From Octopus sinensis (Eukaryota), in the NCBI RefSeq assembly GCF_006345805.1, contig NW_021834179.1:1-64000 (forward strand): a stretch of 64,000 bases of DNA, read 5' to 3'. Position 1 is the stretch's first letter. Each line of letters starts with the position of its first letter. The notes below the pieces were generated by a model, which did not search any database, was not told the DNA's origin, and saw only the letters and a list, made by a program, of their open reading frames with translations. Position numbers and translations under genes: made by a program. Of this stretch, positions 4,647-40,741 are shown in pieces.

Positions 4647-4691
4647 CACACGCTGATGATAGGTCAATACCTTGAAACTCGAGTCCGTGTG
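4647..4691 (+). ncRNA. Minimal type I hammerhead ribozyme (C3-G8 core, GUC site after 4685)
   Basis: cacacg CTGATGA t-aggt-caat-acct-t GAAA ctcgag TC cgtgtg: 6-bp stem I, stem II, palindromic stem III ACTCGAGT. Confidence 0.9.
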
Positions 4692-4901
4692 TATCATAAG
4701 TTGAGGACAGGAAGGACGGCTTCCCTTTGCAAATACTGATAGGACACAGAAAGTGTGTCTATAGCCACCTGGAGGAGGTGTCCTCCTGGGGCTATAAACT
4801 ACAGTAGCATCCACCCTTAGGGGTTAGCCATATTCAAATGGCAAATATACGTCACGATGTGTTTCTGCTACTGTTTATAACTCACTCTGATATTTATCAT
4901 T

Positions 4902-5080
4902 ATATGTATATATATATATATATATATAATATATATATATATATATATATATATATATATATATATATATGTATATATATATATATATACATATATATAT
5001 ATATATATATATATACATACATACATATAGATTTAAAACATATATATATATATATATATATACACATATATATATATATA
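4902..5080. repeat. (TA)n microsatellite
   Basis: Read directly from the sequence. Confidence 0.95.
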
Positions 5081-5419
5081 ATGCTATAAAATTCATAACA
5101 ATTTTTTAAATCTATAAATTATTCAAATCATAGGAGTAAGAAATAATTTAATAACATTTTATCTAATGAATACTTATATTGATTTATGAAGCTAGAATAA
5201 ATATATTTAAATCTACAAAATAACACTGGAAGGAGTTTACCTTTGAAAAACCTAACCTAAAATAATACCAACGTAGAAATCCAAAAACAAATGAGAGAAG
5301 AACTTACTTAAATAGTAAATGCAAAGGATGAAACTGTGATTATCAAACTCTCAATAATCGGTTTATCAAATTAAACAAAGTGAAGCATCCTTAAAAGACC
5401 TGTTTATGTAGAATGTTTA

Positions 5420-5880
5420 AACACATTCATTCCAATGAACACTAAAAATCCTCTTTCCGATTTTGAATTTAACAGCTTTCTTCTAGAAAATAAATCAAAA
5501 ATAATTCTTCAAAACAAAACGAACAGAACCGATTGGCAGTCTTATAGGCCGGAGCCGTCCCTAAAATGTTCCATTCAATAATGAACAAATTATTATGATC
5601 TTTAAGATTCCAGATGAAATTACTAAGACTAATAGAAGAAGCCTTATTTCTAATCCTAAAAGAAAGGTAATGGTTTGAAACCTTGTTTGTTAATATCATT
5701 AGCAGAAGAACCAATATAAATGTAATGATTACCCCCAGAAATGATTTCAGCTTCATAAACCGCTTCTTTACTATTGTATAAAGATGCTGTCTTTAGAAGT
5801 TGTAAATGCATTTTAGAGCGTGGTTGCAAAATATTTGGAGAAGAATTTTGGTGCTTCAAGATCCCCTTGCTTAACTCTGT
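5420..5880 (-). mobile_element. Penelope-like (Naiad-type) GIY-YIG endonuclease remnant; duplicate at about 50740-51200
   Basis: Frameshifted peptides AVYEAEII..YIYIGSSAN, LSNFIWNLKD..IEWNILGTAPAYKTANRFCSFCFEE..LLNSKSE. Confidence 0.8.
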
Positions 5881-5899
5881 TTTCAAATGGAAATGCTTC

Positions 5900-7800
5900 T
5901 GCTATGGATCCATCAAATTTAACTTGGGCTTTCATATCCATATACAGAGCCCTAATTATATTCACAAACTAATCTCGACAGTTAAGTTTCTTCGGTACCG
6001 GCCACGGTCGAAAACATTCCTAAGATCCACAAAACAATGGTAGAACCTCATGTTTTGTTCATTGCCCCTTCCTGGCAGCTGCCAGGCAGGGAAGATCATA
6101 TCAACTGTCCCACATGAAGCACAGACGCTGCATTGTGACTCCGGTGCAGCTCTTGGGATGATAAATTTATGAAGGCGCTCTTAGGTAACATAACGAAGTA
6201 CCTTTCCAACAACAGACAACAAGAATATTCCGTGGACATTTCCACACACGTCCATGGAACGAGATTTATATCAGGAAATGAGAATAGGATCAATCCAGTG
6301 TTTATAGTACCCCCTCTTTCCTCCAGTAAGAAACGAAATAGTTTGATAATCCTTTCCCCCACTAAACCCCTAAATTCCTGAGTTGACTTGTGTTGGCTGG
6401 ACAGGCATTTCTTTGACAACCGAAGAATTAAAGATTTCCTGTGTTATTTTCATATTTCCAGAATAGATCAGAATAGTGAAGTACTAATTGTTTTTGTATG
6501 GATTGACATCAGTAAAGCGCTGTCGGCCATCAACAGATCTCACTGGAGCTATAGTGGTTGACCGAGGGCCAAAAACCTCTTCAATTAATACAAAAGAATA
6601 GAAGGCTTTTGTAGCCTCATGGCCAATAGCACTTTGTACATCTCCTGCCTTTTGGTGCCACCATTTATCTTTCATTTTCTGAAGACTACATCGAATTTTA
6701 ATTGAAGAGATGTGTATCTCATGTCCTGGCTGGAATTGTTTGTTTTACTGAATAGGTCTTGCTTTGTGACTACTTTTATGAAGAAGTTTAGGAATTTCCA
6801 AGCCAATAAACCAAGTTGCATCTTTCTTAAATCTCTTTCCCCAAATAGAAGAAACCGAATCACAGATTTGTAATTTGAAATATTCTTCCATGGATCTCCT
6901 TGTTCAGGTGAGACATCTCTTATTGACACGTGAAAACTTTGTGATAAAGTGGGGGAATGAAGGTTTGCTGTGTTGATTCTCTTTGGTACAGTAGAGCCCC
7001 CCTTTCTAATCTAGCGCTGGATTGAAAAATTAAGTTTGTCTCCCACAAGCTTATGCTCTGTCCATCATTCTGCTCCTTTCATAGCTCGGACATTTCAGAC
7101 AGCTTCCAAATCGGATTTGCGTACCAAGACAAAGTCAACAAGGTGCCAGTGCTTAGAACTTGATTGATTCCAGGTTGTTTTATATTTGGTTTTTACTGAA
7201 AGAAACTGCATGCTATCAAAAGCCGATGTTCAGTGCAAACACAAAGAGTAGACACTATTTCAGTTATGTTCTTCTTCACAAGGTCAGTTATGTCATGAAA
7301 CCAAATTCAACTTTTCAGTTGAAGTCTTCCATAATTACTAGCTTATCAGTAGCTGGCATATTTCTTACCAAATCTCCAGGATCGTTGTAGAATTGTCCAA
7401 CAGATGCTTCTGCATGTGATATTGTGGGTGCATAACACTTATTACAGTGAAGTATCTCCGTTCCTCTTTTTCAGATGCGGACGACATAATAAAATAGATG
7501 CTGAGGAACCGGTGGGGTGGATTTCAAAAGATGAGACCAGAGGGTTTCTAACAGCCAAGATTCCCTTCTTTCACCATCTGCTAAACCTTTCTGAAAGAAA
7601 GTGTAGCCAAATCCACCCAATTGAAATGACCATCCCCTCTTAAAAAGTTTCAAGGAGTGTTCCTACCTTTAATGAATGTCTTTTCAAGTTCTGGGCGATA
7701 GTACAGTTCATCTCTCTGGTCTACGATTAAATTGTTCCTACCTAGAGTACACAGTTTCCAAAAAGCAAGTTTCTTAGAACGTTTAATCTTCTTGAGTTGA
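5900..7800 (-). mobile_element. Degenerate RTE-clade LINE (APE + start of RT); duplicate at about 51220-53120
   Basis: Minus-strand translations SKHWHLVDFVLVRKSD..VRAMKGAE*WTEHKLV (about 7050-7160), KDKWWHQKA..FY..VFGP, CGNVHGIFLLSVVGKVL, PESQC..GTVDMIF..EQN..FVDLRNVFD. Confidence 0.85.
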
Positions 7801-38225: not shown

Positions 38226-38483
38226 AAATAAATTTTTGTTACTTTTATTTTAAGATTTATCATTTATATACACACACACATATATATGATTTATGTTTCC
38301 CTTTCTCTCTATCCTTCTATAAGTATGCAACTTAATAGAATAACTTTGTTACTGACGATCATTTGTCGGTGAGCATTTGGTTCCAACCAACCATAACGTT
38401 GTTACACGCACGTCAGAATTATTATTGAAATATTTGTTTGTCCTGTTCATCCTATATATAGACTTAAACATAAATACATATGC

Positions 38484-38915
38484 GTTGGCGTGGCTATGTG
38501 GTAAGAAACATGGTTCGAAAGCAGATAGTTCCAGGTTCAGTTTCACTGCATGGCAATTTGGGAAAGTGACTTCTACTATTGTCTTGGGCCGACCAAAGTC
38601 TTACGATATATATATATATATATATGTGTGTGTGTGTATGTGTGTGTGTGTGTGTGTTTGTGTGTGTGTGTGTGAGTCTGATTGTTTGTGTATGTGTGTT
38701 TCTGTCTTTGCGACTGTGTTTGTTACCCATTCATATCTTGACAGCAGGTTTTTTACGCCCCCCTCCTTAACATTGCGGTTCGGCAAAAGCGGCCAATAAA
38801 ATAAGTACTTGGCTTACAAAGAATAAGGTCTGATGTCAATTTATTGGGCTTAAAGTCTTTTGATATGGTGCTCCAGCATGGACGCAGGCAAATGTGTCCA
38901 ACAAGTAAAAGAATT
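38484..38915 (+). mobile_element. SINE, second family; paralog at 39678-40150 within a local duplication (38225-38940 vs 39420-40170)
   Basis: ggcgtggctatgtggtaagaaac..ccaggttcagtttcact..gggaaagtg.cttctactat..(TG)n..tail. Confidence 0.72.
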
Positions 38916-40359
38916 AAAGAAAAAAAATACACATTTATATATGTGTGTGTGTATATATCTAAATGCGTATGAGTATATATATATATGTATTTATATACCT
39001 ATATATATGTGTGTGTGTGTGAATGTTTTGCCTCGTACACATGTGCATATATTCACACACACATGTAGACACACGCTCACATATACATTCATATATACAT
39101 ACATATATATATACAAACGTACATACATACACACACTCATATGCACACACACTCATACACACATATATTTGTTTGTGTTTGTGTATGTATATATATGCAT
39201 CTTTATATAACCATACATGATTACATATGACAACGCGTTGCAATTCTTTGTTTTAAAATCCTAGATTGCTGCCTATAAAGTGGTTTCTGGCTTAGTTAGA
39301 ATGCCAGTGGTTGTGTTCTGTGGGGGAGGTGGACAGTCGACTAATTGGACTTCAGCACCTCTGAGAAATGAAAGGCAAAGGGGAGTTCGACTGGAAAGGA
39401 ACTCAGAACGCACCTAGATAAATCAATTTTTGTTATTTTTTTTTAAGATTTATTTATATATACACATACACATATATATATGATTTATTTTTCCATCTCT
39501 CTCATCTTTCTATAACTATGCAACTTAATAGAATAACGTTGTTCCTGACGGTCATTTGTCGGTGAGCATTTGGTTCCAAGCAACCATAACGTTGTTACAC
39601 GCACGTAATAACTATTAGTTAAACATTTGATTGTCCTCTCCATCCTATTTATAGACTTATCCATAAACACATATGCATAGGCGTGGCTATGTGGTAAGAA
39701 ACTTGCTCCGCAGTCAGATAGATCCAGGTTCAGTTTCACTTTATGGCAACCTGGGAAAGTGTCTTCTACTATAGCCTCAGGTCGAGCAAAGACTTGTGAG
39801 TGGGTATTGTAGACGGACCCGAAGGAAGTCCGTTATATATATATATATATATATATATATATATATATACACACACATATGTGTTTGTGAGTGTGTGTGT
39901 GGCGTGTGTGTGTGAGTGTGTGTGTTTGCCTGTGTGTGTGTGTGTGTCTGTGTGACTTTGTTTGTTACGCGTTCATAGTTTGACAGCAGGTCTTCTACAC
40001 CCGCCTTAACATAGCTGTTCGGCAAAAGCGATCAATAAAATAAGTACCAGGCTTACAAAAAATAAGCTGTTGTAAATTTCTTCGGCTCTTCGGCTTTTCA
40101 GTTGGCACTACAGCAAGGCCGCAGTCAAATGTCTTAAACAAGTAAAATAATTAATGTAAAGAATACACTTTTTATACGTGTGTGTAGAGCTCTGAATTCG
40201 CATGAATATTTAATATATATATATATGTATATATATATAATATATATATATATATATATATATATATAAATATATATATACATATATGTATATATATATA
40301 TATATATATATATATATTATATGATCAAAATAAAATAAAAACATGATGCGAAGGATTCA

Positions 40360-40437
40360 GCGGTACATATGTTTCGGGCCTTTATTAGACAGATTTATAA
40401 CAATGCATAATGTATGTCTGTGGCCTTCTTCAGCCGC
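40360..40437 (-). ncRNA. Type I hammerhead, mirror copy in the left palindrome arm
   Basis: Reverse complement of 40664-40741. Confidence 0.82.
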
Positions 40438-40663
40438 GCACAACAGCTTCCACAAGGACATGTGTTACATCAAAAGTTCTTGGTTGGGGATGCAAATCCT
40501 CTCATTCACGTACGACATAATGCGGCAGCAGCATAGAGAGAAGAAAGAGATGGACGCTTCAACTCTATGCTGCTGCCGCATTATGTCGTACGTGAATGAG
40601 AGTATTTGCATCCCCAACCAAGAACTTTTGATGTAACACATGTCCTTGTGGAAGCTGTTGTGC

Positions 40664-40741
40664 GCGGCTGAAGAAGGCCACAGACATACATTATGCATTG
40701 TTATAAATCTGTCTAATAAAGGCCCGAAACATATGTACCGC
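40664..40741 (+). ncRNA. Type I hammerhead with long stem II, GUA site after 40737
   Basis: gcgg CTGAAGA a-ggcc-acaga..tctgt..ggcc-c GAAA catatg TA ccgc; palindromic stem III ACATATGT. Confidence 0.82.

Follow-up and report, generated by a model that had tools for sequence, protein, structure and literature searches.

The palindromes in a 64,000-nucleotide stretch of the Octopus sinensis genome (the whole of the DNA analysed, hereafter the window) belong to small hammerhead RNAs left by Penelope-type elements and by their short non-coding offshoots. Taken together, the data make it probable that these are Penelope- or retrozyme-like type I hammerheads with a self-complementary stem III, two tandem copies of which form a double hammerhead that cuts. 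The hammerheads reside in Hydra-clade Penelope-like elements, at their 3' ends, and in retrozyme-like derivatives that are short and non-coding. In a tandem transcript two copies are predicted, by folding, to swap stem I arms and to pair their palindromes, and the resulting double hammerhead would cut out unit-length RNA. Selection would then maintain symmetry rather than letters; the letters may drift, plausibly via G.U intermediates (CTCGAG/CTCGGG, CATATG/CGTATG/CATGTG and CAATTG/CGATTG). Both interfaces, stem I and stem III, would diverge, so that like-with-like pairing would arise as a by-product.

Hammerhead motifs and their host elements

All seven palindromes in the window are stem III parts of type I hammerhead motifs. 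Those listed in the earlier note are real features: every one of the words corresponds to the A15.1...U16.1 segment within a hammerhead that is complete, with stem I, core, stem II, GAAA, stem III and UH. The motifs have the core CUGANGA / GAAA / UH, a 3-8 pair, stems I to III and an open stem I; the 3-8 pair covaries across families (C-G, U-A and G-C), and self-cleavage is predicted at position 17. Two further occurrences, ACCGGT at 7508 and ACGCGT at 39233, lack a hammerhead context and were rejected as ribozyme parts. A first motif scan demanding a 10.1-11.1 pair recovered no motif, because the motifs carry a mismatch or an extra base there. At gathering score an Rfam search of the window returned no hammerhead; at E<=5, among the matches listed (150 of 287), there is one weak HH9 match at 12105-12176, which scores 29.7 bits where the cut-off is 52, together with its duplicate. 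The Rfam E-value list consists mostly of microsatellite matches to miRNA models.

The window holds seven families. The family A hammerhead (4647..4691, plus strand) has the core CTGATGA, a U.U at the base of stem II, stem III ACTCGAGT at 4677-4684 and a predicted cleavage site GUC at 4685; it belongs to a non-coding clan with a unit of ~352 nt, and an inverted second copy lies at 4301..4343 on the minus strand (ACTCGAGT at 4307-4314). Families G and B are represented on the minus strand by adjoining copies, that of B abutting that of G directly from behind. The former (12125..12161) has the U3-A8 core TTGATAA, a 3-bp proximal stem I and ACCGGT at 12129-12134; the latter (12005..12046) has the U3-A8 core TTGAAAA and stem III ACGCGT at 12012-12017, and carries G17 where the family form is C17, a defect at position 17 of the copy and not of the family. 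Family F (25844..25890, plus) combines the U3-A8 core TTGACAA with stem III ACTGCAGT at 25875-25882, and a partial inverted copy lies immediately upstream. Family D (28223..28273, plus) has the G3-C8 core GTGAACA, an extra base before stem II and AATATT at 28260-28265. Upstream of it is an inverted copy that is truncated, and it lies within a larger 2.06-kb repeat (27524-29590). The 29 near-identical copies of family D were considered as a young active ribozyme family, an idea rejected on finding that 28 of the 29 have common flanks and are carried by the larger repeat. Family E (40664..40741, plus) has the core CTGAAGA, a 50-nt stem-loop II and stem III ACATATGT at 40729-40736; its inverted second copy is at 40360..40437 on the minus strand (ACATATGT at 40365-40372). 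Finally, 45331..64000 (plus) duplicates 1-18685 at 99.4% identity; the hammerheads of families A, G, B and C recur in it, and the one at 49970 has an altered core.

Family C accompanies a recognisable element. An inverted 5' copy of the 3' end of a Penelope-like element (12399..14645, minus) contains a damaged family C hammerhead, with its core at 12454 and a mismatched stem III. Next comes what remains of a Hydra-clade Penelope-like element, with a broken reverse transcriptase and GIY-YIG endonuclease (14741..15900, plus; 80-89% identity to the fuller copies L331 and L332), and at the 3' end (pseudo-LTR) of the same element lies the family C hammerhead (17584..17630, plus), its stem I here cut to 4 bp. 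Stem III consists of 4 bp and the loop TTCTAGTC with central CTAG, and CTAG is the exact centre of the segment ACAGTTCTAGTCCTGT at 17610-17625 (plus). The earlier note had rightly placed CTAG in the loop of a Penelope pseudo-LTR ribozyme, but the ACATATGT ribozyme of family E is likewise of pseudo-LTR type.

By their sequences, families C and E appear to be the pseudo-LTR ribozymes of Hydra-clade elements, E coming from a second Hydra-like family. L332 (family C) shows a reverse transcriptase along with a C-terminal GIY-YIG with RWK-like, DKT, CxCX5C, CxxC and CxH motifs; for family E the reverse transcriptase part alone was found (L333), its frame flanked by inverted copies. Comparison with the motifs of Craig et al. 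2021 (PMC8557442) supports Hydra-clade membership. A Pfam search of four Penelope fragments returned nothing significant. The elements have a pseudo-LTR, an inverted 5' copy and a (TA)n target. The accessible part of the Craig et al. paper describes for the Hydra clade the same (TA)n targets, inverted 5' copy and hammerhead in the pseudo-LTR, together with RWR, DKT, a CxCX5C linker as well as a C-terminal GIY-YIG with CxxC and CxH; in contrast to the elements described there, the octopus copies are broken and are placed solely by motifs.

Families A, B, F and G form a single non-coding, retrozyme-like clan of ~355 nt. Retrozyme units are non-coding, of 170-400 nt, with one type I hammerhead and in tandem, and the units found here measure 352 and 362-369 nt; the 352-nt family A tandem is present in L015. 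Unit-spaced tandems occur in family A at 1 of 29 loci and in family B at 6 of 23, and at none of the 27 F or 29 G loci. The clan comprises six homologous subfamilies with six different palindromes and includes two sister pairs at 80-81% identity. Family A and the copy at L276 have identical stem I arms, and the palindrome is their sole difference.

Symmetry of stem III and predicted dimers

A scan blind to stem III was made of 120 evenly spaced 10-kb stretches (1.2 Mb of genome), scored on stems I and II alone with a threshold of at least 9; 8 shuffles served as control. Of the 34 matches in the genome, 14 had a perfect palindrome and 1 a wobble palindrome; in 5 the palindrome had a mismatch at its centre, 13 were of other kinds and 1 was too short. 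The shuffles gave 36, among them 1 perfect palindrome and 1 with a central mismatch. The excess of perfect palindromes (14/34 against 1/36; Fisher p=8e-5, for matches that are non-independent, several coming from one family) bears out the claim that stem III stays palindromic as its letters change, as do the six palindromes of the six subfamilies. Only the centre of stem III is informative, because any hairpin requires A-U and C-G on the outside; the central four bases are palindromic in 20 of the 21 matches with an even segment of 4-14 nt, which, sorted by eye, represent 10 families and one probable chance match. In a monomer hairpin the central four bases are the loop.

Covariation was assessed in six homologous sequences whose inner segment measures 6 nt; families G and B, at 4 nt, were left out. 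Helix III is 100% paired, its innermost pair takes four types (CG, GC, AU and UA), and 0 of 500 shuffles match the score. The covarying innermost pair consists of two adjacent bases, which are unable to pair within a hairpin. Within family A, ACTCGAGT is a minority form (9 of 31 copies, 6 of these being window copies and their duplicates); the majority stem III is the wobble palindrome ACTCGGGT (19/31), and 3/31 have others.

Folding yields a monomer stem III of +2.4 to +6.0 kcal/mol in families A, B, D, E, F and G, and a stable 4-bp stem of -1.4 kcal/mol in family C. Six of the seven families of the window are thus predicted to have the unstable, self-complementary helix claimed for these ribozymes, which fits C less well. 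Homoduplex energies range from -7.0 to -12.8 kcal/mol, with the exception of the marginal family D (-0.2). Left unconstrained, the natural 363-nt family B tandem folds as a double hammerhead with helix III in trans at P=0.99 (-165.2, against -145.7 as two monomers), and the values for this family span P 0.83-0.99; the family A tandem reaches 0.34-0.39. For C and E the forced dimer is favoured over two monomers (-66.1 against -58.6 and -290.2 against -283.6, respectively), with unconstrained P<=0.11. Among the 16 central dinucleotides placed in a tandem, the four palindromes gave P 0.73-0.84, one wobble 0.44 and the remaining 11 0.00. Altering stem I in one copy alone reduced P to 0.00, and CCTAGG substituted into the A tandem gave just 0.04. 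The dimer reading accordingly holds up, by folding, by covariation of a pair that a hairpin cannot form, and by the published record in the parts available (PMC4209133; PMC3088659, Fig. S8; PMC6765202).

Family specificity and alternative explanations

The earlier note went further and proposed that the palindrome acts as a pairing code by which only like ribozymes activate one another. This is supported in part. In the window 21 of 21 family pairs are incompatible at stem III (hetero-duplexes of -3.3 to +2.6 kcal/mol). Mixed palindromes abolish the in-silico dimer (P=0.00) in 5 of 6 tandems, the exception being the wobble pair CTCGAG/CTCGGG. Across 35 hand-picked families (595 pairs), however, the palindrome is not unique to each: there are 26 distinct stem III sequences, CAATTG occurring in 4 families and CATATG in 3, and three of the six listed palindromes (ACGCGT, ACCGGT and ACATATGT) reappear in unlinked families. 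Because the same palindromes are found in unrelated families, the palindrome alone is likely no family password. Stem III is compatible in 28 of the 595 pairs, 23 of them between unlinked families, and in none of these 23 do both swapped stem I arms reach at least 4 bp. Since a double hammerhead also exchanges stem I arms, families with a common palindrome are, in the model, kept apart by stem I. B and the L303 family have one palindrome and different stem I arms, as do G and the L220 family.

These data bear on whether the palindrome and stem I constitute a selected lock for self-recognition, sister families having been driven apart to avoid mutual activation or cutting. The incompatible window families, the six palindromes in six clan subfamilies, the contrast between A and L276 and the failure of mixed tandems are all as expected of it. 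Against it, palindromes are reused; the same or wobble-compatible palindromes are retained at 67-74% identity (E/f153, f007/f137, f219/f016/f132); at the clan's 47-81% identity, a pair is expected to differ at two or more of four bases with P 0.16-0.73; and chance alone would make unrelated families incompatible at both interfaces. No sign of selection for distinct palindromes was found in this analysis. We regard such a lock as improbable, and equally so its version for the ~350-360-nt clan, in which diversifying selection would act on stem I and palindrome as the two keys of one lock: every sister subfamily would be driven to a new palindrome, unable to pair with co-expressed relatives, so that parasitic ribozyme RNAs keep self apart from non-self. 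Drift of letters under maintained symmetry fits only moderately well a clan with its own palindrome in every subfamily (A/B/F/G), sister pairs included.

Two other explanations concern the symmetry itself. Some ribozymes, the CTAG family foremost, may cut as monomers, the palindrome being incidental or an auxiliary kissing site. Family C invites this reading: its stem III is stable alone, its duplex holds two 2x2 internal loops, and its tandem dimer is unpopulated when unconstrained; moreover, efficient cleavage as monomers is reported for retrozymes of invertebrates in which stem III has two base pairs (PMC7229834, in the part available). Yet CTAG is placed exactly at the axis of symmetry, where chance would put it 1 time in 16, and for dimer advantage it takes rank 14 among 256 central tetramers. 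The 6-nt words of B, D and G would leave a monomer one loop-closing A-U pair (+5.6 to +6.0); on balance, monomer cutting seems doubtful. Less credible by far is that mutation, and not selection for pairing, made the palindromes, for example by template switching in reverse transcription, which would turn quasi-palindromes into perfect ones. The frequency of inverted copies (32 of the 189 loci examined) may indicate that strand switching is common, but symmetry is restricted to the position that a dimer requires, loop II having no palindrome, and whole families retain wobble or central-mismatch forms, matching RNA pairing and not DNA symmetry.

Known systems and the arrangement of copies

The dimer design with a palindromic stem III is already published (PMC4209133, PMC3088659), and the precedents, as far as their available parts go, are PMC4209133, PMC3088659 (Fig. 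S8) and PMC7229834. Metazoan Penelope pseudo-LTR hammerheads (Cervera and De la Pena 2014, PMC4209133) are likewise type I, with a short palindromic helix III and a predicted dimer, a U3-A8 core variant, an extra or mismatched base starting stem II, and many families per genome, mainly as solo copies and as pairs on opposite strands separated by 100-700 bp. In the octopus helix III measures 6-16 nt, against a minimal 4 nt there, and the available part of that paper holds no counterpart of the G3-C8 core of family D; none was found in the literature searched, which subscription papers or supplements may extend. Perreault et al. 2011 (PMC3088659) compared repeat-type hammerheads, in which both stem III and loop III are palindromic, between species, whereas ours are families of one genome; the available part of that paper contains no heterodimer test. 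Small Penelope hammerheads (Luense, Weinberg and Breaker 2017) cleave as dimers, a process that needs a palindromic loop III and a tandem arrangement, as cited in the accessible parts of PMC6765202 and PMC6466107. A published test of heterodimers or of a family code was not found in the literature searched; subscription papers or supplements may hold one.

With its core pattern known, the octopus case adds examples and no principle. It does supply a panel made by nature: a single clan that has six palindromes and two members with identical stem I arms, and that permits a clean comparison of homodimer and heterodimer. Were diversifying selection shown, the clan would be a simple case in which selfish RNAs recognise their kin, and it would supply orthogonal dimer-gated ribozymes.

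The expected tandem copies are lacking in the window, where same-family copies are inverted or solo. The sole close same-strand pair, at 12158 and 12040, has unlike palindromes. It was rejected as a two-ribozyme functional element: both members are spanned by just 5 of 52 matches, all on contigs that duplicate the region, and folding predicts no cross-pairing. Across the 189 loci a same-strand neighbour is present at 14. Because the window copies are solo or inverted and without a same-family tandem, they are likely relics: solo, inverted or mutated insertion products, now inactive.

Animal non-LTR retrozymes (PMC7229834; Li et al. 2026, bioRxiv 10.64898/2026.07.22.740005) likewise have non-coding units of 350-364 nt with one type I hammerhead, occurring as monomers, dimers and trimers, and are held to derive from Penelope pseudo-LTRs (Li et al. 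2026), according to the available parts of these sources. In contrast to them, most octopus copies are solo or inverted, and the octopus units are known solely from DNA. Contigs, which are blind to ends, strand and level, from 4 of 23 sequencing runs (none on record as RNA) cover the family B unit.

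Palindromic stem III in type I hammerheads

The short words singled out in the earlier note (ACTCGAGT in family A, ACGCGT in B, a CTAG-centred loop in C, AATATT in D, ACATATGT in E and ACCGGT in G, with a further word in F) are each the stem III segment of a complete type I hammerhead, and the observation of a palindromic stem III is confirmed. The cores carry C3-G8 in families A, C and E, U3-A8 in B, F and G, and G3-C8 in D; at the gathering score, Rfam called 0 of these hammerheads.

To avoid circularity, chance was assessed by scoring stems I and II only (cut-off at least 9) in 120 evenly spaced 10-kb stretches of the genome. 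This yielded 34 matches: 14 with a perfect palindrome, one wobble, five with a central mismatch, 13 other and one too short. In eight block shuffles there were 36 matches, one of them a perfect palindrome and one a central mismatch, and the reversed sequence gave three, none palindromic. For the excess of perfect palindromes over the shuffles, Fisher p=8e-5 (copies of one family being non-independent matches). Because any hairpin requires the outer A-U and C-G pairs, the central bases are the real test; in the same scan the central tetramer is palindromic in 20 of 21 even-length matches. A separate class has an odd-length stem III, palindromic about a single central base, which would leave a 1x1 mismatch in the dimer (loci L240, L225, L319, L221, L304, L064, L289 and L090).

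Families A, B, F and G, together with the single copies L017 and L276, are alignable across the entire ~355-nt unit at 47-81% identity, with palindromes CTCG(G/A)G, CGCG, CTGCAG, CCGG, CCTAGG and CCATGG. Among six sequences whose inner segment measures 6 nt, helix III is 100% paired, with four types at the innermost pair. Its covariation is 0.529 versus 0.258 +/- 0.042 in 500 shuffles, 0/500 being as high; the rows were chosen by us, and sequences that are akin can exceed this control. The proposal that stem III keeps its symmetry while its letters change holds among the six subfamilies of this clan. The ACTCGAGT family is largely in a wobble form: 19 of 31 copies read ACTCGGGT, whose self-complementarity depends on G.U pairs. 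Across 26 families, each of the five imperfect even-length centres can still pair through wobbles, a sign of RNA pairing. Wobble forms may provide a neutral route from one palindrome to another.

Predicted dimers and the source of specificity

Folding was modelled as equilibrium predictions, with tertiary contacts outside the model. In the monomer, only family C slightly favours stem III (-1.4 kcal/mol), and the other six families disfavour it (+2.4 to +6.0 kcal/mol); the homoduplex lies at -7.0 to -12.8 kcal/mol, with the exception of D (only -0.2). Unconstrained, the natural family B tandem folds as a double hammerhead with swapped stem I arms and paired palindromes (dimer probability 0.99). 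With the centre changed in both copies, this probability was 0.73-0.84 for the four palindromes, 0.44 for one wobble and 0.00 for the remaining 11 centres. Predictions were weaker for tandems of A (0.34-0.39; only 0.04 with CCTAGG substituted) and of C and E (at most 0.11). For dimer cleavage, reviews credit Luense 2017. The dimer reading is supported as a prediction and already published, and the window adds further examples: PMC4209133 describes palindromic positions 15.2-16.2 plus loop 3, a dimer, the U3-A8 core and pairs on opposite strands, its supplementary alignment of 56 motifs has varying palindromic letters, and Fig. S8 of PMC3088659 says the same.

The earlier note took the palindrome for a family code by which like pairs only with like. 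Two results speak for it: all 21 pairs of the seven window families are predicted to be incompatible in stem III, and five of six trial tandems with mixed palindromes gave a dimer probability of 0.00. Among 35 family representatives, picked by hand after single matches resembling chance were dropped (e.g. L192, L193, L231, L249), there are however only 26 distinct stem III sequences, and ACGCGT, ACCGGT and ACATATGT are reused in families without a BLAST link. Stem III is compatible in 28 of 595 family pairs, 23 of them unlinked, where unlinked does not mean unrelated, since BLAST missed the link of B to its own clan. In none of these 23 do both of the exchanged stem I arms reach 4 bp; the four pairs compatible at both stems are all relatives, and altering stem I by itself also destroys the predicted dimer. 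A family code made of the palindrome alone is not supported: because stem-III-compatible unlinked pairs fail at stem I and a change there abolishes the predicted dimer, specificity is predicted to arise from both interfaces together.

Might distinct palindromes themselves be selected? Sister pairs of the A clan at 80-81% identity have unlike palindromes (P 0.16 and 0.18 each, even divergence assumed), and A and L276 have stem I arms in common; this turnover hints weakly at something beyond chance divergence. Since other related families retain compatible palindromes at 67-74% identity, we give selection for distinctness low weight and consider it improbable.

Elements that carry the ribozymes

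The CTAG loop was rightly placed in a Penelope pLTR: a broken RT/GIY-YIG element (14741-17643) ends in the family C hammerhead, and an inverted copy lies upstream. A fuller copy, L332, has RWR, DKT, CxCX5C, a GIY-YIG-like region and CxxC/CxH motifs; judged by these motifs, it matches the Hydra clade as described in section 11 of PMC8557442. A Pfam search of the Penelope-like fragments gave no significant match. A degenerate microsatellite of ~1.5 kb (15900-17400) belongs to the 3' region of the element, because fuller copies have the same. Inverted copies of the family E ribozyme flank a similar RT frame in locus L333.

The A, B, F and G units are all non-coding; in tandem, A repeats every 352 nt and B every 362-369 nt. 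In this they resemble non-LTR retrozymes as characterized in PMC7229834 and bioRxiv 10.64898/2026.07.22.740005.

The window's family D ribozyme is an inverted insertion within a 2.06-kb repeat that spread it. This repeat (27524-29590, in (TA)n) is young, with copies 95-98% identical; related ends occur at about 30097-31780, and its own ends look Helitron-like. Family D copies independent of the repeat exist elsewhere. The family's G3-C8 core (28230-28236 in the window; also L208, L220, L325 and L154) is a natural one, retained in independent copies with compensatory changes in stem II; among natural 3-8 swaps in the portions of the literature examined, only U3-A8 was found, and not G3-C8.

Arrangement of copies and genomic setting

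Among 189 best-scoring loci, with about 1.5 kb of flank per side, 14 have a same-strand neighbour and 32 an inverted one. The tandem copies proposed in the earlier note do not fit the window, where same-family pairs are inverted and the one close same-strand pair joins unlike families, for which cross-pairing is not predicted. In that pair (12005-12161, minus strand) a family G copy is fused directly to a family B copy that is truncated at its 5' end, and the two cores lie 118 nt apart; the junction is seen here and in duplicates of the region only, and possibly arose when the template switched from one RNA to a different one. Several window copies are damaged (B with G17; C with either a shortened stem I or a mismatch in stem III), and the copies are likely relics of elements with tandem source copies.

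The host is an animal with an AT-rich genome of 2.72 Gb, and the window is dense in repeats. Positions 45331-64000 are a second copy of 1-18685 (99.4% identity), spaced 45.3 kb in tandem and with near-identical pieces on other contigs, representing either a young duplication or assembly redundancy. A decayed non-LTR retrotransposon (141-4190, also 45471-49500) has an RVT_1 match and a terminal (AAT)n, and resembles the R4/Dong clade; a further such remnant lies at about 20240-22060, and a broken LINE-like reverse transcriptase, judged by eye, at about 17700-19850. A second GIY-YIG-like remnant (5487-5672, minus strand) matches a Penelope fragment (tblastn E 1.6e-6). Copies of one dispersed, many-copy family of SINE-like repeats occupy 9359-9763, 19853-20025, 22331-22790 and 32184-33153.
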